Source: a virus
IMG/VR virus record: IMGVR_UViG_3300044974_000943
DNA length: 64,000 nucleotides
Reading direction: 5' to 3' (one strand)
The notes under the pieces were generated by a model, which saw only the letters and a program-made list of their open reading frames with translations, made no database searches and was not told the DNA's origin. Shown here one piece after another: positions 2,963-56,112 of this stretch (positions are counted from its first letter, which is position 1; every line of letters begins with the position of its first letter). Both the position numbers and the translations under genes were made by a program.

Positions 2963-2997
2963 GTGTTAAGATATACATATCAATTTCATCTTAGCAC
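2963..2997. promoter_or_regulatory. Face-to-face extended -10 promoters serving the divergent genes
   Basis: TGTTAAGAT (+, 2964-2972) and TGCTAAGAT (-, 2988-2996) form an imperfect inverted repeat in the 37-bp gap. Confidence 0.5.
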
Positions 2998-2998
2998 C

Positions 2999-4594
2999 AT
3001 GCGAAAACAGTCCAATAGCTTCAAAGAGTTCAAGACCCAAGAGTATTTCAAAGCACTAGCCGAATCAGTGTTGCAAGTTCGTAGAGCAATTAATAGCGAC
3101 TTTGCCAAGAACACCTTTGTGGATGAATTAGCTAAATGGATTGCCAAATCTAATGTAAGTATCTATGAAGTACCAGACAAGCTCTACGAACGTTTTGCAG
3201 AAAAGAATGTGAGTGATATCACTAACAAGTATTTTGCTAAGGTGCAGGTCGAGTTCGGTAAAGTTCTGACTACCAATTTTGAGTCGATGATTAAGTTGGC
3301 GCTTAGACATCAGATGTACGACTATTTGTACGAGTATGGCGATGATGATATTCGCAAGTACTTTGACACGCAGGTGATAACTGAAGATACCAAAGAGCTA
3401 TCAGCAGAGTTTGCAGCCAATGATGACTACGGGCAAAATATGCAAAATCGAGCCAGATACGCGCTTACCAAAAAAGCTGTTCAGAACTTATTAAACCAAC
3501 GAGCAGAGCAGACCAATATCAACGAAGTAGCCAAAATCCAAGAGCGCGTCAAGATAGCGGATGAAGTGTCGCGCAATGTCTATATGCTCAACAAAATAAG
3601 CGATAGCACAAACAGCGCCAAAGCTGCCATGATGAACTTCTTGTACGGTAGTAGTGATGAGAAACAGAACTTTATATCGAGTAACTACCTTGGTAAGCGT
3701 CGTAGAGTATTACAAGCATCTTACTCAGCCGAAAGCAATGCAAATATCCGTAAGGCAGTGGCAATATTTCTAGCTGCCAACCGAGAGTACATCACTAACA
3801 TCAAGTCCCAACGCAACAAGTACGAATACGACCTCAACCTTCTCAAAGTACGAATTAGGAACATTATCAACAAAGACACACAAGGCTTGCAAGGGGCATT
3901 TAAGCAGCAGTCACCCGATGTAATCGTGAAGACCGAGTTGGCAATTGCATACAACTTCGGTAAGGTAGCAGCATTTGGTGGTAAGGCAGACAGATACAAG
4001 CGCTTTAGATGGAATGTAGACCGAGAGTACGCATTGATTAGCCGATATAAAAGATTAGCAAGTGGAAGCAAAAGAACTGACCCAGTACCTTGTGAAGATT
4101 GTGAACTTCAAGATGGTCTTGAGTACTACTTGTTTGAGATAATTGAAAACCAAAGAAATAGCGGAGATGTTATTAATTATAAAGCTGGAAACCCTACCGT
4201 ATGGCGCAATTCAGCTAGACCTATTTTGCCCCTGCATCCGATGTGCCAATGTTTTTGGTCGCTCTCTGAAGATATTGATGAAGAAGATTTTGACCCCAAG
4301 AAACAGCCTCCGAATCGACCACCTCAAGGCGGCTTAGGTACACCAATTAAGATTGCTATCGCCGCTACTGCATTTGTCGCTGGACTCGCACTACTAGCAT
4401 CTAACAAATCACTAGGTAATGCGACTGCCAAAGCCATTTACTCAACATTCACAACGCCTCGATTACCTATACCAGATGCAGCCAACTTGCCTCGTATAGT
4501 AGAGTCAGGACTAGAAGCACTCAACTTTGTTGGGGCAGAAAAGAATATAGTAAATAAGGTAGCTAAAAGTGTCCAAATCATCAATCGCGTTTAA
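2999..4594 (+). CDS. MuF / SPP1 gp7-like head morphogenesis (minor head) protein with C-terminal hydrophobic extension
   Basis: IVKTELAIAYN...RFRW...CEDC...DG...PILPLHPMCQC matches the MuF RTE...C-x-x-C...P-x-HP-x-C-x-C pattern. ATG 2999 preferred over GTG 2963. Confidence 0.75.
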   Translation: MRKQSNSFKEFKTQEYFKALAESVLQVRRAINSDFAKNTFVDELAKWIAKSNVSIYEVPDKLYERFAEKNVSDITNKYFAKVQVEFGKVLTTNFESMIKLALRHQMYDYLYEYGDDDIRKYFDTQVITEDTKELSAEFAANDDYGQNMQNRARYALTKKAVQNLLNQRAEQTNINEVAKIQERVKIADEVSRNVYMLNKISDSTNSAKAAMMNFLYGSSDEKQNFISSNYLGKRRRVLQASYSAESNANIRKAVAIFLAANREYITNIKSQRNKYEYDLNLLKVRIRNIINKDTQGLQGAFKQQSPDVIVKTELAIAYNFGKVAAFGGKADRYKRFRWNVDREYALISRYKRLASGSKRTDPVPCEDCELQDGLEYYLFEIIENQRNSGDVINYKAGNPTVWRNSARPILPLHPMCQCFWSLSEDIDEEDFDPKKQPPNRPPQGGLGTPIKIAIAATAFVAGLALLASNKSLGNATAKAIYSTFTTPRLPIPDAANLPRIVESGLEALNFVGAEKNIVNKVAKSVQIINRV

Positions 4595-4702: not shown

Positions 4703-5338
4703 ATGACCACTAAACAACCACAACAAGCTGAATTTATGTTTGAGGGGCTTCAGGCTCTTCAACACGTAGACATTCCTTCCGCTTTTGATGCAGCAAAACA
4801 CGCAGGTTATAACCTTATTTATGGCTATAAACCTAGCTTTGGTGATTTGAGTGCGCTTCCTATAGCTATGAACGCCACTAACTTCCCTAAATGGGCAAAG
4901 ACAGCTAAAGATACCTTTCAAGCCAATGCAGGAGATAAATTGCCTCAACGTGTTGCCAAAGCAGCACTTGAAACTGGGGGTCAAGTATTACGCGACAGTG
5001 AAGGTTGGGGAAATCCTATTGCAGATGGAATGTCTGCAACTTATCGGAATGTCCGAGGAGTTTACGATAAGCAAAAGGAACTTGGTCGTAAGTTAACACC
5101 AAGAGAAATTATGAGTGAGTCTGGTAAAGCTGCGTTACAAACAGCCAAGGCTCAAATAGTAACTAGACCTAAGTTTTATTTTCATGATGCTCCTAAGATG
5201 GGTTTAGCTGCTATAAAAGAAGCTAAACCTAAAATTGGTGAGGCGTTATCTAAACTTCGTCAAGCTTTACCTAGTCGTAGAGGTGTACCACAATTAGCTT
5301 CTATGTCAACTTCGTTCAAACACTTTAAGAATTTTTAG
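4703..5338 (+). CDS. Putative internal head (cargo) protein
   Basis: Starts KQPQQAEF (same as the internal KPQQQAEF of 10839..12875) and ends FKHFKNF; lies in the head module. Confidence 0.5.
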   Translation: MTTKQPQQAEFMFEGLQALQHVDIPSAFDAAKHAGYNLIYGYKPSFGDLSALPIAMNATNFPKWAKTAKDTFQANAGDKLPQRVAKAALETGGQVLRDSEGWGNPIADGMSATYRNVRGVYDKQKELGRKLTPREIMSESGKAALQTAKAQIVTRPKFYFHDAPKMGLAAIKEAKPKIGEALSKLRQALPSRRGVPQLASMSTSFKHFKNF

Positions 5339-5614: not shown

Positions 5615-6637
5615 ATGAAAAAAACCTCACCTAATATTGCTTATTTTAAAGCCCCAGCATCAAGAGCCAACTTTGAGTTGGGGCAGGTGTTGGTTTCTGG
5701 CACTCCTATTAAAGACGAGTACACGGCTCTTGTAGCCACTGAAGGCAAGTTTACTGATAGTACTGATGTTGAACATGATTTCAGTGTTGAACGTCTCAAT
5801 ACAATTGTCGAACATACTAACCGAGCTATCGATAGCGGCACAGTTGTACCTGTTTGTGCTGACCACAAAAAAGATATTCCAAATACCATTGGAAGCATTA
5901 ACGGAAGAGCATTCACAAAAGTAATTACGGAAGCAGATTTACCGAACCAAAATTCCAAGCATTTAGTAGGTAAGCTTGGAATGTTCTTATCTGGTGTTAA
6001 GGTTGCAGCAGCTAAAGGTATCGAAGCGTTGCGTAGTGGCGTTAAAAGTGTGAGCATGGGACTTAACCTTGACCCTAACGAACATCGCATCATGGAACTC
6101 AGCCTAGTGCCAATCCCCGCAATTCCCAACATGGGACTATTTCACAAGAAGGTAAGCAAAGCAATGACCGCTAACTTTTCAGGTATTCCTGATAGCGGAA
6201 ATGCGGTAACTTGGGACGAGCTTGATGCTAATGACCAAGCAATTGACGACCTTCAAGACGAATACAACGAAATTTGCCAGAAATTGTGGCTCTTGCTCAA
6301 AAATGCCTATGACAACGATGCGATTAATATCGACAGTCCTGAAGTCTTGTTACAGTTGATTTACTCTCAATTGAATGGCTTCAGTGTCAAGATTATCGAA
6401 CTACTCGGTTTGACCCAGTTGATGCAACAAATGAACCAGCAAGCACAGGCTGGCGTAATGACTCAGCAAGACCAAGCAGCACAAACTCAGTCTCAATTAC
6501 AAGGCGGTGCTGAGAGTGGTATGACGATTCCACAACTACAACAACAAACCACATACAAACGTGGTACTAACAAGCTGGCTCAGTTCAATTTATCGACGAC
6601 TGGTAAGAAGTATGTACGAGGCACAGCTAAATGCTAA
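5615..6637 (+). CDS. Prohead maturation serine protease (HK97/Mu-I-like, assemblin fold)
   Basis: ADH...IG...SVSMG...MELSLVPIPA matches the H...S...E-x-S-x-V-x-x-PA pattern of caudoviral prohead proteases; upstream of scaffold and capsid genes. Confidence 0.8.
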   Translation: MKKTSPNIAYFKAPASRANFELGQVLVSGTPIKDEYTALVATEGKFTDSTDVEHDFSVERLNTIVEHTNRAIDSGTVVPVCADHKKDIPNTIGSINGRAFTKVITEADLPNQNSKHLVGKLGMFLSGVKVAAAKGIEALRSGVKSVSMGLNLDPNEHRIMELSLVPIPAIPNMGLFHKKVSKAMTANFSGIPDSGNAVTWDELDANDQAIDDLQDEYNEICQKLWLLLKNAYDNDAINIDSPEVLLQLIYSQLNGFSVKIIELLGLTQLMQQMNQQAQAGVMTQQDQAAQTQSQLQGGAESGMTIPQLQQQTTYKRGTNKLAQFNLSTTGKKYVRGTAKC

Positions 6638-8025
6638 GTTTGAAAGCAGAGTTTGCACCCCAGCAGCAGTTCACAGGTCAAACTCGTAGCGGCAGAGTAA
6701 CTTGGGGAGATACTAGAACTCCTCGTAAAGCTGGTAGCGGTGGTCTACGCGGTAAGTCTCGTCAGGAGCAGCTAAGTGAAGAGGCTGTAATGAAAGTCAG
6801 GGCTAAAGTAGCTGGCGAACGCGAAAGACGGGCTTCTGAGCCTCCTAAAGCACCACCTCTTACAGATACCGAGCGTGGTACAGCTAAAGGGGCAGAAGTA
6901 ACTGCTAAAAAAGCTAAAGTTGCGGCAGATGAAAAAGATGCCTTATATGAAAAATATGGGGGAAAGCAGTCAGGCAACGCTGGTGGCGGATTTAATATCC
7001 CATTAGTTACACCTGCTGCCACTGCTGTTGGCAATACAATTCGAGATAAGGTTATTAACCCTGTCGCTAGAGGTCTTATTGATAGAGATATGACTCCAAG
7101 CGAAATCAGAGGTACTCTAGCCTTTGGAACGTTATTTCCAGCAGTAGTGGGCGGATTAGCTTATGGTCAATATAAAAACAAGAAGGCTGAGAAAGAAAAA
7201 CAAGCTCAGGCTCAAGCTCATCGCGACAAAGTTGCCGAAATAATTGCAAAAAGGAATCTACTATTGGAACAACGTCAAGCGCAAGCCCAACAACCTCAAA
7301 CTCAGGTGAGAGTGCCATACAACTTTTTTAGTGCTGCCCCTTTAGTTACACCAGCCAACTTCGCATTTCCTAAGATTGGTGTTCGTAACCCTTTCTTCAT
7401 TAAAAAAGAAAAAGCACTTCCACTTGCTGCAATCGGAGGTACATTAGTTGCTGGGTATGGTTTGCTATCTAAGCTCAACAAACAAAGAGCGCTTGATGCC
7501 TACAAGGTAAATAGCCTTAAAGATAAGAATGCTCAAGATTTTGCAGCTAATTATTTTGATAGTCCTCAATACCATGCAGACAACTTGATTCGCGAAGCTG
7601 CTAATATTACTGGTAATCCTTTGCTGCAAGGTATTACGGATAATCCTCTTGACAGGCTTACTCCAGCCCAGCAAGCTGAAGTGCAGAAAAGGAGAGGCAC
7701 TGCCCGATATTCTAGAGGCGCAGACAAGGTTGCAAACTTTTTTGACCCACTAATTACCCCAAGCTTAGCTATTGGAGGTACACTTTACGGTATCTACAAC
7801 AAGAAAAAAGCTGCCGACCAACAAGAAGAAGTATTTGAAGCTCAGAAATTAGCTGCTCTTGGCTCAATTAAAGATAGGTCGTTGCGTCAACAACTTTTGG
7901 CAAAAGCTCAAGGGCAGTTCATTGATGAAGATTCTAAAAATCGAATCATCGACTCAGCTTTGAATGGCGATGTTCGCTCTGTACTGCGAACAGGTTTGAA
8001 AAAAGTTAATTGGGATGCACTATAA
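6631..8025 (+). CDS. Putative multi-module internal head polyprotein with hydrophobic Gly/Ala helices
   Basis: Begins KAEF; internal PANF and VANF. Three hydrophobic segments (FPAVVGGLAYG, LAAIGGTLVAGYGLL, LAIGGTLYGIY), each followed by a basic/Q-rich helix. Confidence 0.55.
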   Translation: MLSLKAEFAPQQQFTGQTRSGRVTWGDTRTPRKAGSGGLRGKSRQEQLSEEAVMKVRAKVAGERERRASEPPKAPPLTDTERGTAKGAEVTAKKAKVAADEKDALYEKYGGKQSGNAGGGFNIPLVTPAATAVGNTIRDKVINPVARGLIDRDMTPSEIRGTLAFGTLFPAVVGGLAYGQYKNKKAEKEKQAQAQAHRDKVAEIIAKRNLLLEQRQAQAQQPQTQVRVPYNFFSAAPLVTPANFAFPKIGVRNPFFIKKEKALPLAAIGGTLVAGYGLLSKLNKQRALDAYKVNSLKDKNAQDFAANYFDSPQYHADNLIREAANITGNPLLQGITDNPLDRLTPAQQAEVQKRRGTARYSRGADKVANFFDPLITPSLAIGGTLYGIYNKKKAADQQEEVFEAQKLAALGSIKDRSLRQQLLAKAQGQFIDEDSKNRIIDSALNGDVRSVLRTGLKKVNWDAL

Positions 8026-8026
8026 C

Positions 8027-8752
8027 ATGAGACATTTTGTAAATTTCGGAATTATTAACAACATTAAGAACTCTACTGGCAAGCAACGTTTAGGTGCTGG
8101 TGCTGGCTTACTCGGATTGGCTGCTGCTGGTGGATATGCTGGCTATAGGGCGCTTAAGGGCGAACCTCTAGACTTTGGAGGTATTCAGGCTTCAGTTGTA
8201 ACTCCTCCTGAAGACTTTGATAAAGGGGGCTTTGATTTTAAAGATATCCCTCAAAACTTAAGAGGTGGTTCAGCTACTTCCCTTAAAGAGTGGACAGAAG
8301 ATAGATTTGGTAATCCAGTTTCTAGCTACCCTCAAGCTGAGGGCATGGGGGGTGGTACGGACATTTACCAAAATCTTCGTGGCACTGTTCAAAAGGTATA
8401 CAGAGATAGACCTAACACACCTAGAGACAATATCTATGATGCCATCCGCAATCCTGACTTAAGAGGGCAGCAATTTGCGGAGACGGGTGAAAGAATTAAA
8501 ACTGTGGCTGGTAATTTGGGTAGGGGTGTTCAGTCAGGTATTGGCAATACTTACAACTACCTCAAAGAAAATGCAAGACCTGATTTTCGAGAAAATTTTA
8601 GAGTTAAACCAGAGGAGTACTTAAGCGGCAAGTATAAATTAGATGATTTGTCAAGCAAAGACCTATTGAATATTTACAAACAAGTTCAAGGTAGGGAAGG
8701 CGCTGAAACAATTTTAGATAAGGCTATAGCCAGAAGAGGTTTAGGTCTGTAA
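8027..8752 (+). CDS. Putative internal head protein with MRHFVNF leader and glycine-zipper helix
   Basis: ATG 8027 follows the upstream stop (8025). MRHFVNF is followed by LGAGAGLLGLAAAGGYAGY. Confidence 0.55.
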   Translation: MRHFVNFGIINNIKNSTGKQRLGAGAGLLGLAAAGGYAGYRALKGEPLDFGGIQASVVTPPEDFDKGGFDFKDIPQNLRGGSATSLKEWTEDRFGNPVSSYPQAEGMGGGTDIYQNLRGTVQKVYRDRPNTPRDNIYDAIRNPDLRGQQFAETGERIKTVAGNLGRGVQSGIGNTYNYLKENARPDFRENFRVKPEEYLSGKYKLDDLSSKDLLNIYKQVQGREGAETILDKAIARRGLGL

Positions 8753-8753
8753 T

Positions 8754-9629
8754 ATGAGGCACTTTGCAAACTTTTATTTAAACTTACAAGCCCATGCAGA
8801 AAATGCTTTGCAAGGTTTAGTGGATAAGTATCCTAACTCTGAAGTGGGGTATGGGGCAACAGATTTCTTAGATAATTATGGGAGGCATAATTTTGTAGAA
8901 CATACAAATTTACCATCTAGAGAGGCTGTAAGTACGACTATACCTTATGACAAGCTAGACCTTCAAAACATTAAGGGATTTCCTTACAAGTGGGATGGAC
9001 TAAAACATCTTCAAGGCGCTCACACTCATCCTATGGTGTTATCGGCTAAAGCGGCGGGAGCAATTGGAGAAGATGCAGATATTTCCAATGTACCTAAATA
9101 CCCAAGTTTACAGGATTTCACTACTGATGCAACTAATAGGCAAAGAATACCAGCCCCTAACGGCTCAATCAATCCTTCTTTAGTTATTACCAAAGAGTAT
9201 GGAGAGCCTGTTACTTACAAATATACTGCTGGGGCTAATAGGCAAAATTTTTATTCCCGTCTCAATTCTATACAAGATTCGATTAGACTGGGCTTACTTG
9301 ATAGTGAGTTATACGATAAGCCAGACGAGAATGGTAATCGAGCTTTTGTAAAAGATATATCGAAACCGTTTCTCAGAAGGGCAGCTTTAGAAGAACAGAT
9401 GTCAAACTCTAAAGGATTCTTTCACGAACCTTATATAAACGTAGAAAGACAAGCCGCCAGCCCTATTCCAGTTCAATTGCCAAGTATGGGTACAAGTAGA
9501 CTTGGTGAGACTGTTGCTGCTGCTAATGCTATAGGGCTTGCTCATGGAGGTTACACTCTTAAAAAGGCTTATGACGAGCGTAGAAAGCAGAGACAAGCTG
9601 ATGATGTACAATTAACTAATAAGTATTAA
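8754..9629 (+). CDS. JAB/MPN-like metalloprotease domain protein with MRHFANF leader
   Basis: E(VGYG)...H-T-H-P...P-S-L-Q-D followed by the SLVIT strand fits the JAMM E-HxH-SxxD motif; C-terminal hydrophobic helix plus basic tail. Confidence 0.6.
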   Translation: MRHFANFYLNLQAHAENALQGLVDKYPNSEVGYGATDFLDNYGRHNFVEHTNLPSREAVSTTIPYDKLDLQNIKGFPYKWDGLKHLQGAHTHPMVLSAKAAGAIGEDADISNVPKYPSLQDFTTDATNRQRIPAPNGSINPSLVITKEYGEPVTYKYTAGANRQNFYSRLNSIQDSIRLGLLDSELYDKPDENGNRAFVKDISKPFLRRAALEEQMSNSKGFFHEPYINVERQAASPIPVQLPSMGTSRLGETVAAANAIGLAHGGYTLKKAYDERRKQRQADDVQLTNKY

Positions 9630-9636
9630 TAATTTT

Positions 9637-10839
9637 ATGGACTTAGATTTTCAAGATAGGCTATTAGCTGGCGCTGGTGTTGCAGGTGGTGCAGTACTTG
9701 GTAGTAGATTTATTGCTCCCTACGTCAGTAATAGATGGGGCAGAGAAGATTACTACAAAAGTCAGGCAAATGGACTTGGCTCTCAATCAGACCTAGAATA
9801 CAAGCACCAAGAGAGTCTACGAGACATTCTTCAAAGTGATTTATCAGAGCAAGAAAAAGCCCGAAAAATTAAAATCCTTCAGATGTATAGACAAAAAGAG
9901 TTAGGTCAAACTCTAGTGAATACAGAAAGGAGTGCAGAAAGAAATCAAAGATGGGGTAATGCTAAGGGCGCTGTTGCTGGAACTTTAGGGACTGCTGCTG
10001 TAGGTGGAGCTTTGGGGTTGGGCTACGGACTTAGTAACGATTTTGGTACTAGTAAGAAATGTTTTGCAAATTTTGATGCTTACCTACCTGAAGAAAAAGA
10101 AGAGCAACCTAAAAAGAGAAGCATAAGAAAAGCTGCTGCTATTGCAGTTGGTAGCGGGGCAGGGGTGGCTTTAGGGGCAGATGTTCTTAATAAATTTTCA
10201 AATACTGGAGAAGGGCAATATTATGCAAAAGAAGCAGCAGAAAACTTTGAAAATCTGAAAGGTTCCGTTGGTAAAGGGTTGATTAAAGCGGGAGAACATT
10301 TACAAGGTTATAATTTTCCAGAAGGACTTAGATATAGACCTTACAACTTGGATGATTGGGGTCATCATTCTTTTAGTAAAGCTGAAAAGACTGCAAAATT
10401 TACCCGCAAACACAACTCAACTTACGTGCAGTTCAAAAAAGCCTATAATCAAGCCGTAGCAAACTTTATTGACCCCTCAGCAATTGCAAGTGAAGGTATT
10501 GGCGATTATTTAGGTCTAGGTCTAGGCAGTCTCGCAGGTGCGGAAATCGGTCGTGCTGGCTCTGCTCAAATCAAAGCTAAAGCTCTTAGACGTAGTGCTG
10601 ACCCTAACGAACGCCACAATCAAATATTGGCTCAACAACTAGAAGCTGCACAACAAATACAAGACCCTGTACAACGCGCAAGAGCTATTGAGAAAGCACA
10701 ATCTCAAGCTGACTACGAATCTGCCAAACTGCAACGCTGGGCTGGTTTAAAAGGCGGTCTATTGCAAGCAGGGTATACTGGACTAGGTGCAACTACAGGA
10801 CTACTTGGTAATACAATTGCACATCACTGGGACAACTAA
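9637..10839 (+). CDS. Putative glycine-zipper internal head polyprotein
   Basis: Five GxxxG-rich segments; junction motifs KKCFANF, EKTAKF, AVANF. Confidence 0.55.
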   Translation: MDLDFQDRLLAGAGVAGGAVLGSRFIAPYVSNRWGREDYYKSQANGLGSQSDLEYKHQESLRDILQSDLSEQEKARKIKILQMYRQKELGQTLVNTERSAERNQRWGNAKGAVAGTLGTAAVGGALGLGYGLSNDFGTSKKCFANFDAYLPEEKEEQPKKRSIRKAAAIAVGSGAGVALGADVLNKFSNTGEGQYYAKEAAENFENLKGSVGKGLIKAGEHLQGYNFPEGLRYRPYNLDDWGHHSFSKAEKTAKFTRKHNSTYVQFKKAYNQAVANFIDPSAIASEGIGDYLGLGLGSLAGAEIGRAGSAQIKAKALRRSADPNERHNQILAQQLEAAQQIQDPVQRARAIEKAQSQADYESAKLQRWAGLKGGLLQAGYTGLGATTGLLGNTIAHHWDN

Positions 10840-12875
10840 TGAATAAAAAACCGCTATTACAAAAAGCCAACTTTGCTACAGCACCTTCACTTCTTTCTGC
10901 CGTACCTAACGCAGTAAAAATTGGCGCTGGTGTTGGTGGTGGACTGGGACTTTTGCAAGGCTCTGGAGTTTTGGAGTCAGATGCAGAAAAAAAAGCTACT
11001 AATGTTGGTAATCGATTAGGTAAGGTACTGACAAGCACAACTGTAGGTGCTGGACTAGGTGCTGGTGCAGGATACGCAGTTAATCGCTACAATTTATCTA
11101 AGGCTCCAGAAAGGGAGTTGCAACGTAGAGAAGCTGTCGTAGCTGAGCATGAAGCAGCTAACCCTAGAGGCATTCGTAAAGCTGTTAAAAGGGTTAATAA
11201 AGAAGTTGAAGCTGTAAAAAATAAAGTTCAAGAAGTTGTAGCTCCAAATCTTGACCAGAGAGAAGCTAGGATGGCTGAAGAACTTAAGCGTCAGTCTACC
11301 CAACCTGAACCAACTCCATTGATTGACCAAGCTATAAGTTGGGAAAGAAATATCGCAGCTAAAACTCAAGAAAAAGTTGGCGGATTGCTTGATAGACTTA
11401 AAGGCAAAGGTAATTCGACTCGGAGAGAGGCAGGTGGAGGTATCCCCCCAAATACAGTAAACGTAAATTCAACCACAGACCTAAGTAAAATGATTCGTAA
11501 ATCAGCAAACTTCCAAGACCCAGCTACAATTCAACGCCTAATCCAACACGGTAGCACCTACATCCCTCAAAACAATACTGGGGTTATCAGCCTCGAATCT
11601 ACCTTGCGCGGCAAGATACAGAAAAAGAAACTGCGTGACCCTAAAGTACCAGCAAGTATGGGTGTTAAGGAAATCAACTCGATGATTGAATCGGGCAAGC
11701 CAGTAGGCAAGTACTTCAATAAAGAAATTCGTAAGTCTGCCAGTTTTGAGATTTCTCCAGTTCAAATAGCTGCTGGTGTGGGTGGGTTGGCTGGGTTGGT
11801 AGGGGGAGGTTTACTAGGGAGAAAGTTGGCAGGTAAGCCTATTCCTCTTGATTCAGACCTAGAAACTAAGTACAATAACTTGTACCAACAAATTCTTACA
11901 AACCCTGAGAGAAAAGATTTACAAGAAGAGTACGACAGAATGACTTACGAACTTGCTGAGACACCAACTGCAAAAAGAAATGCAAAAAGAGCATTCTATC
12001 CAGTTGCAGGTATGATAGGAGGAAGACTTGCTGGGGCTGGACTAGGTGCTGTAGCTGGCGCAATGTACGAAAATAGTCAGTACAGTAATAAAATCCGTAA
12101 GTCTGCAAACTTCCTCAAGCCCCAGCAACAAGCTGAGTTCGGTATTGGCGACCAAATCAACAGCGCTTTGACATCGGCAGGTAAATTAATCACGCAACCC
12201 GTAGCTAAAGCAGTTCGTAAAGCTGCTACCAAAATTCCTGCTGGCGATAGATTTTTAGGTGGTATCCCTATTATTGGTTCCAGACTAGATGGTGGTGCTA
12301 AAGCTGCTGCTGCTGGTACTTACGATGCTTTACAAGGGGCTGCTAAAGTACTTGATTCCGATAAAGCGGCTAAACTTACTGCTATCGGTGTTGGTGGTAC
12401 TGCACTGGCTGGTGGTGGATTGCTTGCTGCTAAACTAGCACAAAAGAAACAAGAAAACGAAGCTCGTTATAGCAAAAGCATCCGTAAGTCTGCATCGTTT
12501 GGCATCATTCCTACTGGTTTAGTTAATGGCGCTCAAAAAGTTGCTAGAGGTGCTGCAAATCGTTTTGGCAATCTATCTCCTCAAATCAATGCCGCTAATG
12601 TCGGTACTGCTGTTGGTGCGGGTCTAGGCGCTCTTGAAGGTTCTGGTATCAATGAAACAGAAGAGCAACGAAGAAGCACAGGTTTGGTCGGTCGTGCAGG
12701 TAAAGTACTTGGTATGACTGGATTAGGTGCTGGTGTAGGTCGTGGAGTTGGTTCAGTTGCTGGCGCTGGTGTCAATCGTTATCAAGCTAACCAACGTTTA
12801 CAGAGTCGTCGCAAGGATAATCCAGACGCATTCAAGAATCCCAACACAGTTCCACGCTCTATAGAAATCGAATAG
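10839..12875 (+). CDS. Glycine-zipper polyprotein with four IRKSA[NS]F linkers
   Basis: N-terminal QKANF. IRKSANF/IRKSASF at 11493, 11727, 12093 and 12480. First and last modules are paralogous. Confidence 0.6.
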   Translation: MNKKPLLQKANFATAPSLLSAVPNAVKIGAGVGGGLGLLQGSGVLESDAEKKATNVGNRLGKVLTSTTVGAGLGAGAGYAVNRYNLSKAPERELQRREAVVAEHEAANPRGIRKAVKRVNKEVEAVKNKVQEVVAPNLDQREARMAEELKRQSTQPEPTPLIDQAISWERNIAAKTQEKVGGLLDRLKGKGNSTRREAGGGIPPNTVNVNSTTDLSKMIRKSANFQDPATIQRLIQHGSTYIPQNNTGVISLESTLRGKIQKKKLRDPKVPASMGVKEINSMIESGKPVGKYFNKEIRKSASFEISPVQIAAGVGGLAGLVGGGLLGRKLAGKPIPLDSDLETKYNNLYQQILTNPERKDLQEEYDRMTYELAETPTAKRNAKRAFYPVAGMIGGRLAGAGLGAVAGAMYENSQYSNKIRKSANFLKPQQQAEFGIGDQINSALTSAGKLITQPVAKAVRKAATKIPAGDRFLGGIPIIGSRLDGGAKAAAAGTYDALQGAAKVLDSDKAAKLTAIGVGGTALAGGGLLAAKLAQKKQENEARYSKSIRKSASFGIIPTGLVNGAQKVARGAANRFGNLSPQINAANVGTAVGAGLGALEGSGINETEEQRRSTGLVGRAGKVLGMTGLGAGVGRGVGSVAGAGVNRYQANQRLQSRRKDNPDAFKNPNTVPRSIEIE

Positions 12876-14784: not shown

Positions 14785-16032
14785 ATGGCAATGTCCCCTA
14801 TTGAAAGCTTTTTAAAAGAAGCACGCGCTGCTAAGGCGGCGGACTTGGTTATCAACAATACCCTTCGTCAGACCAAAGAACGCAGCAAAGTTCTCAACAC
14901 TTATGTTCCCTTGATTGAAAAGACAGGTCGTGATTGGCTTGCTTATCTTGGGACAACCACAGACCCCATCGCATCGTTAGTTGCCACTGGTCAGGATTAT
15001 CCTGAAGCGAAAAAAGGCGACTTCTCTCGCATTCAAGCTCGTAACTTCAAAGCAGCGATTTCGTATCACTGGGATGAAGATACGCAGTGGCGTATGCAAG
15101 AAGTTAGCGAAATCGCTAAGTTACGCAACATCACCATTCAGAATATTCAAGTTTCTGAAGGTAAAGTGCAGTTAGGTCAAGACAACGAATTGGCTAAGGT
15201 CATTTTTGGTTCGGTAGCTTCTCTTGTTCGTGGTCACATCAATTTGATTGACTATCTTGCTTGGCAGACTCTACAAACTGGTAAAATGGCGTATACCGAC
15301 CGTCGTACAGGTCTGAACGTTTCGTTAAATTGGTTAAAAGCTCAGCCTGTTCGCAGAAATATGTTCCCTCAGCCCGTATATCAAACGGATTACAACGGAA
15401 CTGAAACTGTTGACTCTCTCAAGCGCGACTGGACTCAGCACGAAACTGCTGACCCTTTACAAGACCTTGTAGATATGCACTCTAACTACAAGTGGGTTAA
15501 CGGGTTCCCTGCTGACGAAATTGCAATTAGCGAACGTCTTCTTTTGAATATGGTTCGTTGTAAGTCGGTTAAGGAAGCTGTAGTTGCAGCTAATGTTATC
15601 GGTAACGTTATTACTGGTACTCCTTCTATTGACCAAGTTAATGAAGTTCTAACTCGCAGATTTTTACCTAAGTTCGTCTTAGTTGACGACTATGTAGAAC
15701 TAACAGACAATGAAGGCAAGTCAGTTCCTACTCGTGTACTTGATGAAGGTACTGTAGTATTCCTAAGTCGTCAAGGTCAGTTTAATCGTATTCTTGGCGG
15801 AACTCTTGAGAACGGAGGAAAAGCAGGTATCTACGTCAACACGTACACCAAAGCTGGCGACCCACCTCTTTCCATCACCAACACTGCAAGTATGCAGTTG
15901 GTTGCGGCTCCTACTATTGGTCGCACTGGAAGCGCACGTAAATTTGCTAAATTGGCTAACTTGGAAAGTTCAGTAAATCTTGCGGAATTTACCACTTTCA
16001 ACCCTGCTGACGGTTTAACTGTCATCTCCTAA
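14785..16032 (+). CDS. Major capsid protein (lambda gpE-like family, HK97 fold)
   Basis: 415 aa; LAWQTLQTGK, W-x(5)-ADPLQDL and GDPP...LVAAP motifs are typical of phage capsid E proteins; followed by a strong terminator. Confidence 0.85.
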   Translation: MAMSPIESFLKEARAAKAADLVINNTLRQTKERSKVLNTYVPLIEKTGRDWLAYLGTTTDPIASLVATGQDYPEAKKGDFSRIQARNFKAAISYHWDEDTQWRMQEVSEIAKLRNITIQNIQVSEGKVQLGQDNELAKVIFGSVASLVRGHINLIDYLAWQTLQTGKMAYTDRRTGLNVSLNWLKAQPVRRNMFPQPVYQTDYNGTETVDSLKRDWTQHETADPLQDLVDMHSNYKWVNGFPADEIAISERLLLNMVRCKSVKEAVVAANVIGNVITGTPSIDQVNEVLTRRFLPKFVLVDDYVELTDNEGKSVPTRVLDEGTVVFLSRQGQFNRILGGTLENGGKAGIYVNTYTKAGDPPLSITNTASMQLVAAPTIGRTGSARKFAKLANLESSVNLAEFTTFNPADGLTVIS

Positions 16033-16194: not shown

Positions 16195-17439
16195 ATGGAC
16201 TTCCCTAAATCGGCTGGAATTTACAAAATCACGAATAAAATCAATGGAAAATATTACATTGGTTCAAGCAACAATCTCAATTACAGAAAAAGTACTCACT
16301 TATCAAGATTAAGAAGAGGTAAACACGGTAATAAGCAACTACAGGCTTCTTTCACTAAAAACGGAGAAGATAATTTCTTCTTTGAGATTGTAGAACTTTT
16401 GGAAAACGCTACAGTAAAAGAAATTAGACAATTAGAGCAAACTTATTTAGATGGCGTAGAGGACTGGTCTTTATGCTATAACGTATTGAAGATTACAAAT
16501 CCTGATTCTGAAATTATTCCTATATCGGAAAATACAAGAAAGAAGATGTCGGAAAACAATAAAGGAGAGAAAAATCCTAATTTTGGTAAGGCTGTTTCAG
16601 AAGAGACACGTTTAAAGTTATCAAAAGCTAGATTAGTTCGTGGGTCTGGTGTAACAAAATACGCGGATGATTGTTGGGGTGTAGTTATAAAGGTTGAGAT
16701 TGGAACGAATAAAAAAGTTTGTCTTGGTAAATATAGAACAGAAGAATTAGCAAGACAAGTACGAAAAGTTGCCGAAGAATTGTATATTGATGGTATCGCG
16801 GAAAAACAATCAGAATTAGATGAGTTGTTTACCCACAGAAGAGGAGTAGAAAAAGACGGTAAGTATATAGCTAACTCCAGAATCTATGGGTTAGGAGTAC
16901 GTTTGGTTGAAAGTGGAAGTTGGGCAGCAAGTATTTTTTACAATGGGAAAACTACAGAACTCGGTAGGTACGAAACTGAAGAGCAAGCGCGTCTAGTGAG
17001 AAGTCTTGCTGAGAAAGTATATTGGGATGGACAACATGAATTTAAGAAAGAATTAGAGGCTGCGCGTTCAAAAGCTAAAACTAAAACTAACCAAAAGCGT
17101 AAAGGCGTTGGAGTCAGTAGAAATGGGCATGGTACTTACACAGCCTGTATTACAGTCAACAATAAAACATTTTCTGTAGGTAACTTTGGTACAGAAGAGG
17201 AAGCAAGAGAGCATCGTATCAAAGCCGAAAAATATTATTATGATGGTGATGAATCTTTTGCAGAACTTTTTAACAAACCTAAAAAAGAGCGAGAATTACC
17301 TGTTGGAGTGTATCCTAAGTACAACAAGTTTTACTCTGTTATATCTGTAAACAACAAAACTAAGCGTGTCGGCAGTTTCAACACACCCGAAGAAGCACAT
17401 TTAGCTAGACTTGAAGCTTTACAATCTCTGCTATCATAA
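16195..17439 (+). CDS. Free-standing GIY-YIG homing endonuclease with NUMOD3 and repeated AP2-like DNA-binding domains
   Basis: AGIYKITNKINGKYYIGSS...R...E...YN; SENTRKKMS and SEETRLKLS; four repeats ending in (L/V)G-x-(Y/F)-x-T-x-E-x-A. Confidence 0.9.
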   Translation: MDFPKSAGIYKITNKINGKYYIGSSNNLNYRKSTHLSRLRRGKHGNKQLQASFTKNGEDNFFFEIVELLENATVKEIRQLEQTYLDGVEDWSLCYNVLKITNPDSEIIPISENTRKKMSENNKGEKNPNFGKAVSEETRLKLSKARLVRGSGVTKYADDCWGVVIKVEIGTNKKVCLGKYRTEELARQVRKVAEELYIDGIAEKQSELDELFTHRRGVEKDGKYIANSRIYGLGVRLVESGSWAASIFYNGKTTELGRYETEEQARLVRSLAEKVYWDGQHEFKKELEAARSKAKTKTNQKRKGVGVSRNGHGTYTACITVNNKTFSVGNFGTEEEAREHRIKAEKYYYDGDESFAELFNKPKKERELPVGVYPKYNKFYSVISVNNKTKRVGSFNTPEEAHLARLEALQSLLS

Positions 17440-32129: not shown

Positions 32130-32297
32130 TTAGTTTTCCCAAGGTCTTTTCATAGTTGCGAAATCCCCTTTTATGGGGCGGTCAATGTAATTGCGTAGAC
32201 TGTTTAAAACTTTTTTGTGATATTCGATTGGGTCAGGCGCTGAAGCGGCAATCAGCGCCATTAATTTATCGTAGTTAGGTGTTGAGTTGTGTGTCAT
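32130..32297 (-). CDS. Small hypothetical protein (55 aa, not in ORF track)
   Basis: MTHNSTPNYDKLMALIAASAPDPIEY...PWEN; ATGA overlap with the upstream stop; fills the gap exactly. Confidence 0.55.
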   Translation of the reverse strand: MTHNSTPNYDKLMALIAASAPDPIEYHKKVLNSLRNYIDRPIKGDFATMKRPWEN

Positions 32298-32773
32298 GGT
32301 TTTTTAAAATATTTAACTCGGTTGGAAGGGTAAGTCTTCAGTGTGTAACCGTTACCTAAAAGTAGCTCTGCAATTTCTTCTTTTGACCAGTTTAAGCTGG
32401 GTATTGCTTTCTTGACATCTGCCGTAGTGAATAATCTGTTGAAACTATAGGCAACATTTAAAATACCTTGAGTCTCTATTTCGGCTGGTACAAAATCAAT
32501 TGGGGTAGGGAAAACTTCTTCTTGGTAAGTAAGCAATTCTTGCAATACATGAACATTATAGACAAACCACTCACCAGAGACTCTAGAGCCAGCCAACCTT
32601 TGATGCAATAATTTCTCATCTTCAATACCACCTTTGAAAGTAAAAAGTAAGTCCAGTCGGTCAGTAGTCCCACATTGCAAAGTTGCCAAACGTTTTAATG
32701 GGTCAGTTGCATATCCAATCTTGACCTCGTTTTTATTAGGGCAGTGAATAGCATAAATGAATGTCTGTGCCAT
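32294..32773 (-). CDS. T5orf172/MUG113-type GIY-YIG domain protein
   Basis: FIYAI...VKIGYATDPLKRLATLQ...EKLLH...GEWF. Confidence 0.85.
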   Translation of the reverse strand: MAQTFIYAIHCPNKNEVKIGYATDPLKRLATLQCGTTDRLDLLFTFKGGIEDEKLLHQRLAGSRVSGEWFVYNVHVLQELLTYQEEVFPTPIDFVPAEIETQGILNVAYSFNRLFTTADVKKAIPSLNWSKEEIAELLLGNGYTLKTYPSNRVKYFKKP

Positions 32774-32774
32774 G

Positions 32775-33467
32775 TTATTTAATTTTCTCAAAAAATATAA
32801 CTCTAGAAGCATCGGTCTTTTGCTCGTAGCCTAAATCTTGCATTACATCCTTAATAACTTTGGGAGTAATTTCTGGACAGTCTTCACAAGCAGCTTTCAA
32901 GTTCTTAAAATAGATTCTTGTACGCTTTTTAGTTTTAGTGTTGGCTAAAGTCTCTTCACAGTAATCTTCTAGGAAATCTCGAATAGCGAAGTTCTGTTTT
33001 TTCTTGATTGCAAAGTAACGCTTGATACCACTGAGAAGTACAGAAAAAGGAATGTGATTAGTCCCAAAGTATTCCTCAAGACTCAGAGATAAAAATGCAA
33101 TTTCTTCAGAGTCAGCTTCTAGGGGCAATTCTTTAAAAGTGATGGACTTTTTTTCAAAATCGTAGTCAAAGTTAACAAGTAGGTGGGGCGCAGTAGTAAA
33201 AAATCTAGCTAGCTTAGTCTCAGAGATTTTCTTGTCGGTAGATAACTCTACCAAGAGCTTTTGTGTTTCTTTTTGCTGTTTGTTAACTTCATCGAGGGTG
33301 TTTTGAAGTCCTTGAAGCATATCTACAGTCTGAGCGTGTTGTTTTGCAAGTAACAAGGCACTGATTTTGTAATTGTCTGGGGTAAACAACTCTGCAATCT
33401 CATAAGGCTCTAGCGGTCGTTCTGCTAGCTTTAATTTTAGTAAGTCTTCGGGGTTTGCTGATTTCAT
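32775..33467 (-). CDS. Coiled-coil protein with possible C-terminal winged-helix DNA-binding domain
   Basis: FLEDYCEE...IKDVMQDLGYEQK...RVIFF resembles wHTH C-termini of phage primase-helicases. TGCTATTAT promoter at 33490-33498 (-). Confidence 0.4.
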   Translation of the reverse strand: MKSANPEDLLKLKLAERPLEPYEIAELFTPDNYKISALLLAKQHAQTVDMLQGLQNTLDEVNKQQKETQKLLVELSTDKKISETKLARFFTTAPHLLVNFDYDFEKKSITFKELPLEADSEEIAFLSLSLEEYFGTNHIPFSVLLSGIKRYFAIKKKQNFAIRDFLEDYCEETLANTKTKKRTRIYFKNLKAACEDCPEITPKVIKDVMQDLGYEQKTDASRVIFFEKIK

Positions 33468-35026: not shown

Positions 35027-35572
35027 ATGCAACACTTCGCAGACTTTGGGTACGTTAGACAAGCTAATAAACAACTGAAGCGATTGTACGATTTACAAGG
35101 CACAAAGATAGCGATACCTGATAAATCGAGACTAAACCCTGCCACTTTAGAAACAGGATTAGGAAATATCTCTGGCAATCTAACAAAAGATTTTGATAAA
35201 GGTCTTATAAATACAATCCCAAAAAATACCTTAAACCAAGTTAATCTGCAATTAGAAGAAAAATTAAGTAGGAAAAGAGCTATTAGACAATCAGGATTAG
35301 ATAAACAAGACCCTTTAAGTAGACCTATTAGACATAGCTACAACGAATACGATGCACCAGCCGTACTCCCTAAAACTGGTTGGTCTGATATTCGTAAAAC
35401 TGATGACCGAGCAGCTAGTCCTACGGGATATCTTGGATTCCGTACCGACCCTTACAAGGGATATGGAGGTATGATGGAAGAGCCTATACCTAAACCAGAC
35501 TTATATCCTGATGGTATGCCTCAGACTGTTAAAAAATACGCCAGCAGACTGAGCAGAAAAGAGGTTAATTAA
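35027..35572 (+). CDS. Putative internal head protein with MQHFADF leader
   Basis: N-terminus matches the MRHFANF leaders at 8027 and 8754. Confidence 0.5.
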   Translation: MQHFADFGYVRQANKQLKRLYDLQGTKIAIPDKSRLNPATLETGLGNISGNLTKDFDKGLINTIPKNTLNQVNLQLEEKLSRKRAIRQSGLDKQDPLSRPIRHSYNEYDAPAVLPKTGWSDIRKTDDRAASPTGYLGFRTDPYKGYGGMMEEPIPKPDLYPDGMPQTVKKYASRLSRKEVN

Positions 35573-44186: not shown

Positions 44187-44259
44187 CTCCTCCACTTGGA
44201 CTCGAACCAAGGACATTCGCGTTAACAGCGCGACGCTCTACCAACTGAGCTATAGAGGA
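44187..44259 (-). tRNA. trnN: tRNA-Asn(GUU)
   Basis: Canonical cloverleaf: TCCTCTA/TGGAGGA acceptor, TCGCG-CTGTTAA-CGCGA anticodon arm, TTCGAGT T-loop; no encoded CCA. Confidence 0.95.
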
Positions 44260-44262
44260 TTA

Positions 44263-44336
44263 AGCGAAACGAGAGACTTGAACTCTTAACCTTTCCCTTG
44301 GAAGGGGCTGGCTCTACCAAATTGAGCTAGTTCCGC
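44263..44336 (-). tRNA. trnG: tRNA-Gly(UCC) with mismatched anticodon stem
   Basis: GCGGAAC/GTTTCGC acceptor; loop CTTCCAA; anticodon stem AGCCC/GGGAA has two mismatches; one T-stem mismatch. Confidence 0.8.
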
Positions 44337-46486: not shown

Positions 46487-48046
46487 ATGCAATCAATAAA
46501 ACTTTTTATTATCCCTATGCCGATGTTCGAGGAAGCAACCCAGTTAAGCCTATTAGAAGACCTAGACGATTCTTTGTTGTTTGCTGGGACTCCTACGCCT
46601 ATGGCAGCACTTCAACAAGGGATGTACTCAGTAGAAATTCAGTCGTTAACGGCAGATGCACAAGCCGAAATAAATCATCCAAACGAAACTGAGCGCCCCA
46701 GCATAAAACAGTTAAGTGAGCTAGGTAATCGCGACCCCGTAGCCAAACAGTGCTTAAGTTTCAAAGCGTTAAGATGTACAAGCTCATTTGGCGAATACTC
46801 CCACAGCAAGCGCGAGATAGAAGAATTTGTAAACTCAAATTTAAGAACATTACCAAAAAGCTTTAAAAAAATTATATTTCAGATTTTTACCTCAGCTATT
46901 CTCTATGGGATAGGTCTTGCTGAGTTCACTAAATCGTCTAAAATAAGGGGGTATCGTGGTCAATGGCGTATAGGTAATATTCACGTTTTAAATCCTGAGC
47001 AAATCATATCTTTCGGAAAATCCTCTAAAAGTTCTGGGAAAATTGAGTGGGTACTTTACGATAATGGAAATGGGAAGCAAGTAAAAATTCCATATCAGAA
47101 GCTCTTGCATATCACAAACACAAGCGGGGCAGCCTTTGATAAGACCGCGATTTGGGGTGTAGGCGACGGTGCAGCCGCAAATTCGTACTACAAATTAAAA
47201 AAAGTAGTACTCACACACCTAGCACTCCGCATCAAAAACGATAGCGAAGGTCTACTCTGGGCAAAAACACCCAACAACGGTACGACCACAATGGTTGACA
47301 CCCAAGGTAACGTTAAAAAAGACAACAAGGGCAAGCCACTCCAACTAACAAAACAAGCTGCTCTTTCGCACCAACTAAAAGACATTCAAAAGCGAGGATT
47401 CATCGTCACCGATAACGACGTAGAACTCAGCCGCATCCAAATACAAAACACCAGCGAAAATCACTTCAAAGCGTTAGAATACATCGATAGAGGCATTCAA
47501 TCCAGTTTTGCCATACCTTCAGGCATCTTTGACGTTAATAGCGGCTCAGGAACGACAAATCTAGGTAATAACGGCTTTGGTCAAAATTTCAAGATGACCT
47601 TTGACTCAACCATCTTCGCACTAACTACCACACTCAAGCACGAAATTATCCACAAAATGATTCGTGGCTTATTACACGACAACTTCCCTTCAAGTTGGTT
47701 CAGCGAAGATTGGGGCGAGTTTGTATTCGATGTCGAAGAAGACCAAGCAACAGTTAATGGTCGTCTCAGCACTATTACTTCACTTATTGCATCTGGCATC
47801 ATTCCTGCCGATGACGTTGAGGTACTTAGCCTTATCCGTAAGAACCTTGGATTACCTTCACTCGATGAAGACGAAAAAGCCAAGAAACAAGAAGATGCAC
47901 TTAAAGCTGAGATACAAAAAGAATTACAAAAACAAAGTGAAGTATTGGCTCTACAGGCTCAAATCCAGCAAATGCAGATGCCTCCTGCCCCACCAGAAGG
48001 ACAACCTGAGCAATATCCTCTTCAAGAGGGAGCGCCGCAAGCATAG
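46487..48046 (+). CDS. Portal protein (Mu gp29/DUF935-like)
   Basis: About 510 aa; RDPVAKQCL, AILYGIGLAE, FKALEYIDRGI...IP and IRKNLGLP motifs are typical of this portal class. Confidence 0.75.
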   Translation: MQSIKLFIIPMPMFEEATQLSLLEDLDDSLLFAGTPTPMAALQQGMYSVEIQSLTADAQAEINHPNETERPSIKQLSELGNRDPVAKQCLSFKALRCTSSFGEYSHSKREIEEFVNSNLRTLPKSFKKIIFQIFTSAILYGIGLAEFTKSSKIRGYRGQWRIGNIHVLNPEQIISFGKSSKSSGKIEWVLYDNGNGKQVKIPYQKLLHITNTSGAAFDKTAIWGVGDGAAANSYYKLKKVVLTHLALRIKNDSEGLLWAKTPNNGTTTMVDTQGNVKKDNKGKPLQLTKQAALSHQLKDIQKRGFIVTDNDVELSRIQIQNTSENHFKALEYIDRGIQSSFAIPSGIFDVNSGSGTTNLGNNGFGQNFKMTFDSTIFALTTTLKHEIIHKMIRGLLHDNFPSSWFSEDWGEFVFDVEEDQATVNGRLSTITSLIASGIIPADDVEVLSLIRKNLGLPSLDEDEKAKKQEDALKAEIQKELQKQSEVLALQAQIQQMQMPPAPPEGQPEQYPLQEGAPQA

Positions 48047-48293: not shown

Positions 48294-48467
48294 TTATTCT
48301 TTTTCATCTGACGAAGTTGCCGCTTGCTCCTTCTTTTTTCTGACGTATTTTTTAGTTTCTTTTTCTACAACAGGACTAATCAAATTTTGTAGCCCTGTTT
48401 GATAAATATTTGCAAAGTTAGCGCCCGACGAATGAGCCTTAGCGAAATGAGTGAAGTGTTTCATCAT
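48294..48467 (-). CDS. Small protein with MKHFTHF...GANF leader (putative head cargo)
   Basis: Real start is ATG 48467 or 48464, just after the upstream stop at 48472. Confidence 0.55.
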   Translation of the reverse strand: MMKHFTHFAKAHSSGANFANIYQTGLQNLISPVVEKETKKYVRKKKEQAATSSDEKE

Positions 48468-55648: not shown

Positions 55649-55671
55649 ATAGTATGGAAATAACAACATAA

Positions 55672-56112
55672 ATGAACAAACGACAGTGGATTCTTTCTCA
55701 ATCTGAAGCCCTAAACATCACAAATCCCAATGATTTGTGGAGTTATCTGTTAGCAACTGAAGTGGAAGTTGTTAACACAGTACCTAGGCTTGACGTGCCA
55801 AAACTAATTGATATTAGAGAGGCTTTCACACTTATCCCTGACAATGAAAAGCTCCCTATTAGCGAGAGCTTAACCTACAGGCAAGGCTTGATTCCTGCCC
55901 TTCAAAATGGAGATATTGGATTTATTCAGGATAACATCACCACCCTTGTTGTTGGTGGTATGATGTCGCCTCAAACTGCTCAAGCTTTAGGTGCATTAAT
56001 GGCACAAACTGAACCTGACCCTAACTGGCAACCAACAGTAAAAGTGCCTATGTACGTGGCTGCTGGTTTTGATTCTTTGAGTCTACAGGATACAATAGAT
56101 ACATTACTTTAG
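55672..56112 (+). CDS. Hypothetical protein (possible fibre chaperone)
   Basis: Follows the SGNH gene. Confidence 0.5.
   Translation: MNKRQWILSQSEALNITNPNDLWSYLLATEVEVVNTVPRLDVPKLIDIREAFTLIPDNEKLPISESLTYRQGLIPALQNGDIGFIQDNITTLVVGGMMSPQTAQALGALMAQTEPDPNWQPTVKVPMYVAAGFDSLSLQDTIDTLL

Follow-up and report, generated by a model that had tools for sequence, protein, structure and literature searches.

A terminal H-F-x-x-F heptad with a probable protease site as a candidate head-loading tag on basic proteins of Pam2-like Pseudanabaena siphophages

In a 64,000-nucleotide stretch of the IMG/VR virus record IMGVR_UViG_3300044974_000943 (referred to here as the window), several open reading frames (ORFs) begin with variants of the heptad M-[R/Q/K]-H-F-[A/V]-N-F. 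Our favoured reading, to which we assign a probability of roughly 0.6, is that this tag is a propeptide cut after its Phe by the head protease of the phage, and that it is overlapped by a separable address, H-F-x-x-F. The heptad would be the shortest N-terminal form of the propeptide, carried by strongly basic virion cargo, probably ejection proteins or internal proteins of the head. In the triplet [A/S]-[N/D/E]-F, the phage's own prohead protease (ORF 5615-6637) would recognise its cutting site; the same site would part the modules of polyprotein-like internal proteins, recur in the scaffold-like protein and flank the protease domain. The upstream hydrophobic-x-H-F, which overlaps this site and appears to be specific to the lineage, would most likely dock the protein to the assembling core, possibly in the substrate groove of the protease, and the tagged protein would be co-assembled into the procapsid and then freed inside it by cleavage. 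We regard cleavage after Phe as likely, a location inside the head as probable and a shade less so, and an address function of the H-F part as an even bet.

By its sequence, the window is that of a Pam2/PA-SR01-like siphophage of the freshwater cyanobacterium Pseudanabaena. The DNA of its head module is ~83% identical to that of the Pseudanabaena siphophages Pam2 (ON014754.1, 142.9 kb) and PA-SR01 (MT234670.1), and most window ORFs have homologues in Pam2, with their order kept; ORFs 8027, 8754 and 4703 (named by their first positions) are without a Pam2 homologue. The head region comprises a MuF-like gene, the protease, a variable block of basic proteins (6631-12875), a scaffold-like gene and the major capsid gene. 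For genome-wide counts, we used Pam2, PA-SR01 and two complete IMG/VR genomes as relatives. The coordinates of the window features are collected in Table 1.

The sequence-only reading of this DNA had drawn attention to the tag, and all of the N-termini that it quoted were found in the sequence, namely MRHFVNF (8027), MRHFANF (8754), MQHFADF (35027) and MKHFTHF...GANF (48464, minus strand), together with the looser ends ...QQAEF and C-terminal FKHFKNF (4703), MLSLKAEF (6631), ...QKANF (10839) and ...KNANF (56131). The DNA pattern ATG-NNN-CAY-TTY-N6-TTY, which encodes M-x-H-F-x-x-F, occurs four times in the window as compared with 0.16 expected, and none of 100 shuffles reached four. All four copies are at ORF starts (8027, 8754, 35027 and 48464 minus), and as they differ in their codons, selection acts on the peptide. 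In the six-frame translation there are eight matches to [RQK]HF..F: four directly follow an ORF-opening Met, one closes ORF 4703-5338 as its final seven residues, and the remaining three are in frames that do not code. The triplet A[NDE]F is found within the first 20 residues of 8 of the 60 window genes (~0.7-1.9 expected), and 16 of the 17 ANF triplets in the window fall in head-module or tagged proteins. The N-terminus of the MuF-like protein had also been offered as an example of the tag. We consider it doubtful and dropped it, as the MuF-like genes of two distant contigs (L041 and L042, described below) lack the motif and the Pam2 homologue, gp10, is absent from the virion detections.

The most direct evidence comes from the virion proteome of Pam2, in which mass spectrometry of purified particles identified 27 of 191 ORFs (PMC9382816 Table S2). 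We rebuilt the Pam2 proteome and scored the tags blind to the mass-spectrometry list, with a loose tag defined as [A/S][N/D/E]F within 20 residues of the start. Seven of nine strictly tagged proteins were detected, compared to 20 of 182 others (one-sided Fisher p 1.6e-5), and for strict or loose tags the counts are 12/17 versus 15/174 (p 2e-8). The enrichment persists among proteins with an isoelectric point (pI) >=9 (tagged 12/13, untagged 3/22), among those of at least 120 residues (12/15 versus 14/108) and among genes 71-191, which are outside of the structural block (5/6 versus 1/115). The untagged proteins that were detected are the expected structural ones, such as the capsid, portal (gp50, a homologue of the window portal) and tape measure proteins. 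Another, gp46, is untagged at its N-terminus and carries the motif at its C-terminus (..FQHFANF). For the tagged window ORFs 6631, 10839, 35027 and 56131, the Pam2 homologues (gp15, gp17, gp44 and gp41, and gp57, respectively) were among those detected. A comparison of the tag with a virion proteome had been set as a check on the first description, and in Pam2 it came out in favour of the idea: tagged proteins are strongly enriched in the virion and the tag is rare among non-virion genes. Carried over from this relative and from the presence/absence table of one study, the tagged proteins of the window can be taken to be virion-associated. For PA-SR01, the published virion proteins are bands on SDS-PAGE gels that were assigned by size.

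The proteins that carry the tag are otherwise largely unrelated. After the tag was stripped, they fell into at least 12 families or clusters without BLAST similarity to one another, which bears out the earlier claim that the tag marks unrelated proteins. Single-linkage clustering merged 26 proteins, and on inspection the merger was traced to Gly/Ala-rich modules and mosaic segments that they have in common rather than to a common fold. Pfam had no match for most tagged proteins, and PHROGs gave weak or no matches for the cargo proteins. What the tagged proteins have in common is their charge, with pI values of 9.2-11.3 compared to a proteome median of 6.0. Some tagged genes are paralogous (35027/gp41/gp44 and gp42/gp187), and several tagged proteins have ~20 further residues in common after the tag, as would be seen if the tag were a relic of shared ancestry. 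The unrelated clusters make this a very slim prospect, and the same holds for a regulatory or recombination element in the DNA over the start codon, given that codons vary synonymously between copies, that copies are also found internally and at C-termini, and that ORFs 8027 and 8754 abut their upstream genes, leaving no room for a promoter.

The strict pattern is present in 11 copies in PA-SR01 and in 4 and 10 copies in the two complete IMG/VR relatives, almost all of which start ORFs of 43-471 residues, while a reversed control pattern gave 0. An IMG/VR-wide scan with the exact coding pattern for MQHFANF matched 20 places, of which 13 are real ORFs, every one in a Pam2-like contig; the remaining seven belong to unrelated contigs and have ORFs of 8-52 codons. 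Because the real ORFs are confined to Pam2-like contigs, the strict tag appears to be clade-specific. The two distant syntenic contigs L041 and L042 (GC content 27% and 36%), whose proteases are 44-50% identical to that of the window, have leaders of 14-27 residues that end in (A/S)NF before Gly-rich modules and are without H-F. The triplet thus follows the protease family into distant contigs without H-F, suggesting that H-F is a later, lineage-specific addition. We found no description of the tag in the literature on the motif and on cyanophage propeptides.

The conserved core of the tag is the triplet [A/S]-[N/D/E]-F, and because it also occurs internally, its primary role is probably that of a protease site. 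Internal copies in the proteins of the variable block have the consensus K-x-I-R-K-S-A-N-F and lie at module junctions, and the scaffold-like protein has four or five internal sites. The Gly/Ala-rich module behind the leader of ORF 10839 is found again behind internal sites and, in relatives, behind the N-terminal tags of stand-alone genes. The Met of the tag sits where internal copies have Ile or Met, which gives a full motif of [M/I]-[R/Q/K]-[H/K]-[F/S]-A-[N/D/E]-F. Stand-alone genes with an N-terminal tag also match the internal sites of fused genes. For example, an SNF2-type helicase (Helicase_C, SNF2-rel_dom) of 470 residues begins with MKHFADF in two metagenomic relatives (L012:4314-5729 and L015:14273-15685, both minus strand), and in PA-SR01 (L002:12254-14050, minus strand) it is fused to an upstream Gly-rich domain, behind an internal ..MEHFANF. 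A second example is Pam2 gp189 (L006:31802-32770; ..MQHFADF), which was detected in virions and was called casein-kinase-like by the HHpred analysis of the Pam2 authors (PMC9382816). In gp189 and its homologues (L018, L033, L051 and L063), an internal M-[Q/R]-H-F-A-[D/N]-F separates an N-terminal domain from a Gly-rich C-terminal module of ~125 residues. Going by this arrangement, gp189 could be a two-part cargo that is freed by a single cut.

Leader boundaries tell a similar story. Between orthologues the leader length differs (7, 14 or 17 residues), but every leader closes with [A/S][N/D/E]F, immediately followed by the same mature sequence. IRLSDKN is found behind MQHFANF and MQHFTHF-ATTT-ANF, GYVKQANK behind MQHFANF and MQHFTHF..EADF, and the mature start NIYQTGL behind the leaders MKHFAEF, MKHFVCF..TSNF, MKHFVYF..TANF and MKHFTHF..GANF (that of the window). 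These variable leaders with one triplet end, the internal copies, the equivalence of fused and split genes, and the sites flanking the protease domain are the observations from which we infer cleavage.

The presumed enzyme is encoded in the head module, with the MuF-like gene on one side and the scaffold and capsid genes on the other. ORF 5615 has 161 distant homologues, its PA-SR01 homologue was assigned to Mu-like prophage I protein by the HHpred analysis of the PA-SR01 authors, and 39 of 61 aligned family members match phrog_976 (head maturation protease). In its AlphaFold2 (AF2) model, residues 36-178 form a confidently predicted domain, residues 1-31 and 180-200 are disordered, and the C-terminal domain (200-280) is helical. 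Compared using VIA, the confident domain matches the varicella-zoster virus protease with Z 10.4 (root-mean-square deviation (rmsd) 2.5, 110 residues aligned) and T4 gp21 (5JBL) with Z 9.3 (rmsd 3.5, 116 aligned), and herpesvirus assemblins take up all of the first 35 Foldseek rows, with probabilities of up to 0.99. On this model, ORF 5615 has the fold of T4 gp21 and the herpes assemblins. H84, S147 and S163 are invariant in 61 homologues and include the putative catalytic His and Ser. The two ANF sites of the protease (residues 18-20 and 186-188) each sit within one of the disordered segments, which is what self-processing would predict, and homologues of 44-61% identity also have ANF near both ends.

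A Phe at P1, the residue before the cut, is known from the staphylococcal 80-alpha/L27 system, in which Prp cuts after ..Q-[F/H]-F. The Q-H-F-A of some tags is superficially like this site, which raises the prospect that a host or Prp-like protease unlinked to the phage protease does the processing. This is highly improbable. The register differs, with Asn at P2 instead of Phe or His, and the motif tracks the phage protease family over contigs of 27-41% GC and flanks the protease domain. We reject the Prp/L27-mimic mechanism itself, as a search for Peptidase_Prp (PF04327), with positive controls, had no match in any of the four phage genomes (Pam2, PA-SR01 and the two complete IMG/VR relatives).

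Position 6 of the heptad is informative about the relation between the triplet and H-F. In 59 non-redundant strict tags, we looked for a further canonical site in residues 8-25. The residue at position 6 is N, D or E in 49 of them, and only 3 of these 49 have such a site; in the other 10, position 6 is H, Y, C or K, and a canonical site follows within ~10 residues in 8 (Fisher p 3e-6). The C-terminal copies end exactly at the Phe, where they cannot be cut, and gp46, which has one, is virion-associated; together these argue for a binding role. On this basis, we read the tag as two overlapping elements, a release site that needs N, D or E at P2, and an H-F-x-x-F that is retained at the very end of the protein in its own right. 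The original description of the heptad as a portable 7-residue packaging address for any ORF survives in part: the heptad is invariant in two families, terminal and virion-linked, but its conserved core is only the triplet, and H-F is lineage-specific.

Several points weigh against the favoured reading. The position-6 counts overstate independence, as many of the tags are orthologues (~5 versus ~20 families). We know of no characterised prohead protease with Phe at P1, Pfam has no family for ORF 5615 or its 60 homologues, and the Foldseek E-values are only 5e-3 or weaker. In Pam2, the strictly tagged gp37 and gp52 and the protease itself were not detected in virions, and the evidence from this phage consists of presence or absence in one relative and one study. 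In addition, where the N-terminal tags read H-F, the internal sites read K-S, so that H-F may be mere extended subsite recognition. Pursued to its end, this last point gives an account in which the tag serves for cleavage alone: the protease logo is [A/S]-[N/D/E]-F, to which H-F adds subsite recognition in very short leaders, and entry into the procapsid depends on basic charge or on the Gly-rich modules. The absence of H-F from internal sites and longer leaders fits this account, as does the fact that all tagged proteins are basic and many have common Gly/Ala-rich modules. We nevertheless think it unlikely, because a propeptide of seven residues that is idle before cleavage is hard to explain, and because H3 and F4 are invariant although internal sites manage without them. 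Moreover, the protein still begins with the heptad where a separate canonical site stands behind it, C-terminal copies cannot be substrates, and the tag predicts virion presence even among basic proteins.

Mass spectrometry also gives virion association only, and several tagged genes sit among tail-fibre genes, ORF 35027 and Pam2 gp37-46 being interspersed with them. Both would suit a peptide that docks proteins to a site outside of the head, such as the tail, baseplate or fibre attachment, and that possibly stays uncleaved. We consider this improbable, since the motif fills the module from protease to scaffold, including the protease and the scaffold-like protein, and since the equivalence of fused and split genes suggests cleavage. 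The cargo, moreover, includes an SNF2 helicase and a JAB-like enzyme, has a high pI and has no detected fibre-like domains.

If the propeptide-plus-address reading is correct, the tag would be the shortest natural capsid-loading label known to us, with address and release site overlapping in seven residues, and the first such label outside of T4-like and jumbo myophages, in a Mu-like cyanobacterial siphophage. It would imply a previously undescribed specificity of a prohead protease for Phe at P1. The injected proteome of the clade would become readable from sequence, at ~10-17 cargo proteins per genome, many of them encoded outside of the structural modules, and the heptad could be used as a compact tag for putting foreign proteins into cyanophage particles. 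The tag flags the SNF2 helicase, the JAB-like peptidase and the kinase-like protein as candidate takeover or counter-defence enzymes. More speculatively, and with somewhat less than even confidence, we consider a two-part portable loading code. In such a code, a terminal hydrophobic-x-H-F-x-x-F address, N- or C-terminal and encoded at any genome position, would dock any protein to the head core. Release inside would come from an overlapping or downstream [A/S]-[N/D/E]-F site, through a gp21-fold protease switched to Phe at P1, and the cargo, these three proteins included, would be injected takeover or counter-defence enzymes.

Individual window proteins illustrate how the tag is constrained. 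ORF 8027 has an in-frame ATG 12 nucleotides upstream (8015), yet its homologues begin at MRHF, and its family alignment, which reaches down to 42-43% identity, has M1, H3, F4 and F7 in every member and N6 in nearly all. The family of ORF 8754, with members of as little as 43% identity, shows no change at M1, H3, F4, N6 or F7, and immediately after F7 it has a hot spot for insertions (up to 22 residues). In the AF2 model of this protein, residues 1-7 are the only N-terminal segment with a predicted local distance difference test score (pLDDT) <50, and the fold begins near residue 10. Its modelled body resembles a JAB/MPN+ metallopeptidase: JAB/MPN proteins (RadC, BRCC36, JAMM1, Rpn11, Cap3) fill the first 15 places among the VIA matches, at Z values of only 5.2-7.1 (RadC 7.1), and E30, H90, H92, S118 and D121 are invariant in the family (E...HxH...SxxD), with a His-to-Ser spacing that exceeds the canonical motif. 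A deconjugating enzyme carried in the particle would be a candidate counter-defence factor. The last ~30 residues of ORF 8754 (9540-9629; ..GGYTLKKAYDERRKQ.QADDVQLTNKY) are far better conserved than the body, being almost invariant throughout the family down to 43% identity. For ORF 4703, both tagged ends are kept in PA-SR01 and six IMG/VR relatives. ORF 35027 shares only its first 26 residues with Pam2 gp42, the minus-strand ORF 48294-48464 is homologous to the annotated Pam2 gp52, and ORF 56131 weakly matches a phrog annotated as internal virion protein. ORF 9637 is without a clear N-terminal tag, and its Pam2 homologue gp16 was not detected in virions. The scaffold-like Pam2 homologue gp18 (pI 4.1) was likewise not detected, as expected if the scaffold is degraded.

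Table 1. Features of the window.
Feature	Coordinates	Strand	Remarks
MuF-like protein, doubtful tag member	2996..4594	+	starts M(M)RKQSNSFKEF; P3 = Lys
211-residue ORF	4703..5338	+	N-terminal leader ends QQAEF (4715-4735); C-terminal FKHFKNF 5315-5335
Putative prohead protease	5615..6637	+	domain residues 36-178; ANF sites 5654-5674 (disordered N-terminus), 6158-6178 (linker)
Basic internal-protein candidate, 464 residues	6631..8025	+	leader MLSLKAEF; internal ANF 7342-7362, 7720-7740
241-residue ORF	8027..8752	+	tag MRHFVNF 8027-8047, then Gly/Ala-rich hydrophobic segment; pI 9.3
291-residue ORF	8754..9629	+	tag MRHFANF 8754-8774; JAB/MPN-type-like body
Gly/Ala-rich protein, 400 residues	9637..10839	+	internal ANF 10054-10074, 10447-10467; N-terminus MDLDF
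Polyprotein-like basic protein, 678 residues	10839..12875	+	leader ends QKANF (10854-10874)
Internal sites of ORF 10839	11493-11513, 12093-12113	+	IRKSANF
Internal site of ORF 10839	12120-12140	+	QQQAEF
Internal site of ORF 10839	12480-12500	+	IRKSASF
Acidic scaffold-like protein, 289 residues	12975..13844	+	four internal A/S-N/E-F sites
Major capsid protein	14785..16032	+	phrog_29, E 1e-19
GIY-YIG homing-endonuclease-type gene	16195-17439	+	
GIY-YIG homing-endonuclease-type gene	32294-32812	-	
181-residue ORF	35027..35572	+	tag MQHFADF 35027-35047, then GYVRQANKQLKRL; pI 9.6
tRNA-Asn(GTT) and tRNA-Gly(TCC)	44187-44336	-	
GIY-YIG homing-endonuclease-type gene	45638-46483	+	
Mu-type portal protein	46487..48046	+	PF06074, E 2.7e-9; far from head module
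56-residue ORF	48294..48464	-	two-part leader: MKHFTHF 48444-48464, GANF 48414-48434, then conserved NIYQTGL
Three inserted ORFs (380, 430, 146 residues)	53214-56112	+	
Basic Gly/Ala-rich protein, 251 residues	56131..56886	+	17-residue leader ends KNANF (56161-56181); second ANF 56833-56853

Some neighbouring features are also of interest. The capsid protein of the window begins M..SPIESF (14785-14811, plus strand) and continues with LKE, and in relatives (L007, L042) MAYIENF or MFIESW stands before the same LK. An aromatic residue thus always precedes a conserved LK(E/G), and from these sequences the position could be one more site for the protease or have a structural role. One of the three GIY-YIG-type genes, which carries NUMOD3 and AP2 domains, lies directly 3' of the capsid gene, where the gene is not constant among relatives. 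Pam2 has four tRNAs at the place that matches the two of the window. Just upstream of the tagged ORF 56131, three ORFs are inserted that have no Pam2 homologue and no Pfam match.

Short N-terminal leaders on head proteins have been described in several other systems. The T4 capsid-targeting sequence (CTS; MKTYQEFIAE) is a leader of ~10 residues on the basic internal proteins IPI-III that is cut once by gp21 and is sufficient to load foreign proteins, with targeting mainly by residues 4 and 7 and processing by residues 8 and 10 (PMC9026906). The first description had likened the tag to this sequence. The likeness holds in that the aromatic residue 4 and Phe 7 of the CTS correspond to the two invariant Phe residues here and that the protease has, in its model, the gp21 fold; it is a likeness of pattern only (positions 1, 2, 4 and 7), without demonstrable homology, as seven residues are too short for a homology test. 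Both are short N-terminal leaders on unrelated, highly basic virion proteins, and in both T4 and this clade the cargo set varies between related phages and the protease is of the same fold. The T4 cut falls three residues past the address (I-A-E, with Glu at P1), whereas the cut here is presumed to fall at the address Phe itself, after seven residues in total. Unlike the CTS, the tag also occurs internally and at C-termini, and its phage is a Mu-like cyanobacterial siphophage. Targeting has been assayed in T4 only, and the tag is known from sequence and the virion list of a relative.

In jumbo phages, a gp21-type protease (phiKZ gp175, SPN3US gp245) cuts many head and ejection proteins, scaffold and itself after A/S/G-X-E (PMC10052503). 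The A-X-E logo of SPN3US gp245 (PMC10052503) and the triplet have in common a small P3, any P2 and a fixed P1, and both groups of phages have some short N-terminal propeptides and some multi-site proteins. In contrast to the jumbo phages, this clade has Phe in place of Glu at the presumed P1, its leaders can be down to seven residues long (compared to 20-254), and there is a conserved H-F extension. The sites of the window clade are read from sequence. In the staphylococcal phage 80-alpha, N-terminal leaders of the capsid and scaffold proteins mimic ribosomal protein L27 and are cut by the host cysteine protease Prp. These resemble the tag as short N-terminal leaders on head proteins that are removed after Phe (as predicted here), but they are on capsid and scaffold only, with no large cargo set, and the register differs. 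Encapsulin cargo-loading peptides, which are N- or C-terminal, bind the shell protein and load unrelated cargo into an HK97-fold shell while staying uncleaved. Likened by description, they resemble the tag in idea only, with no sequence similarity. By analogy, the tag looks like a member of the same kind as the T4 capsid-targeting sequence.

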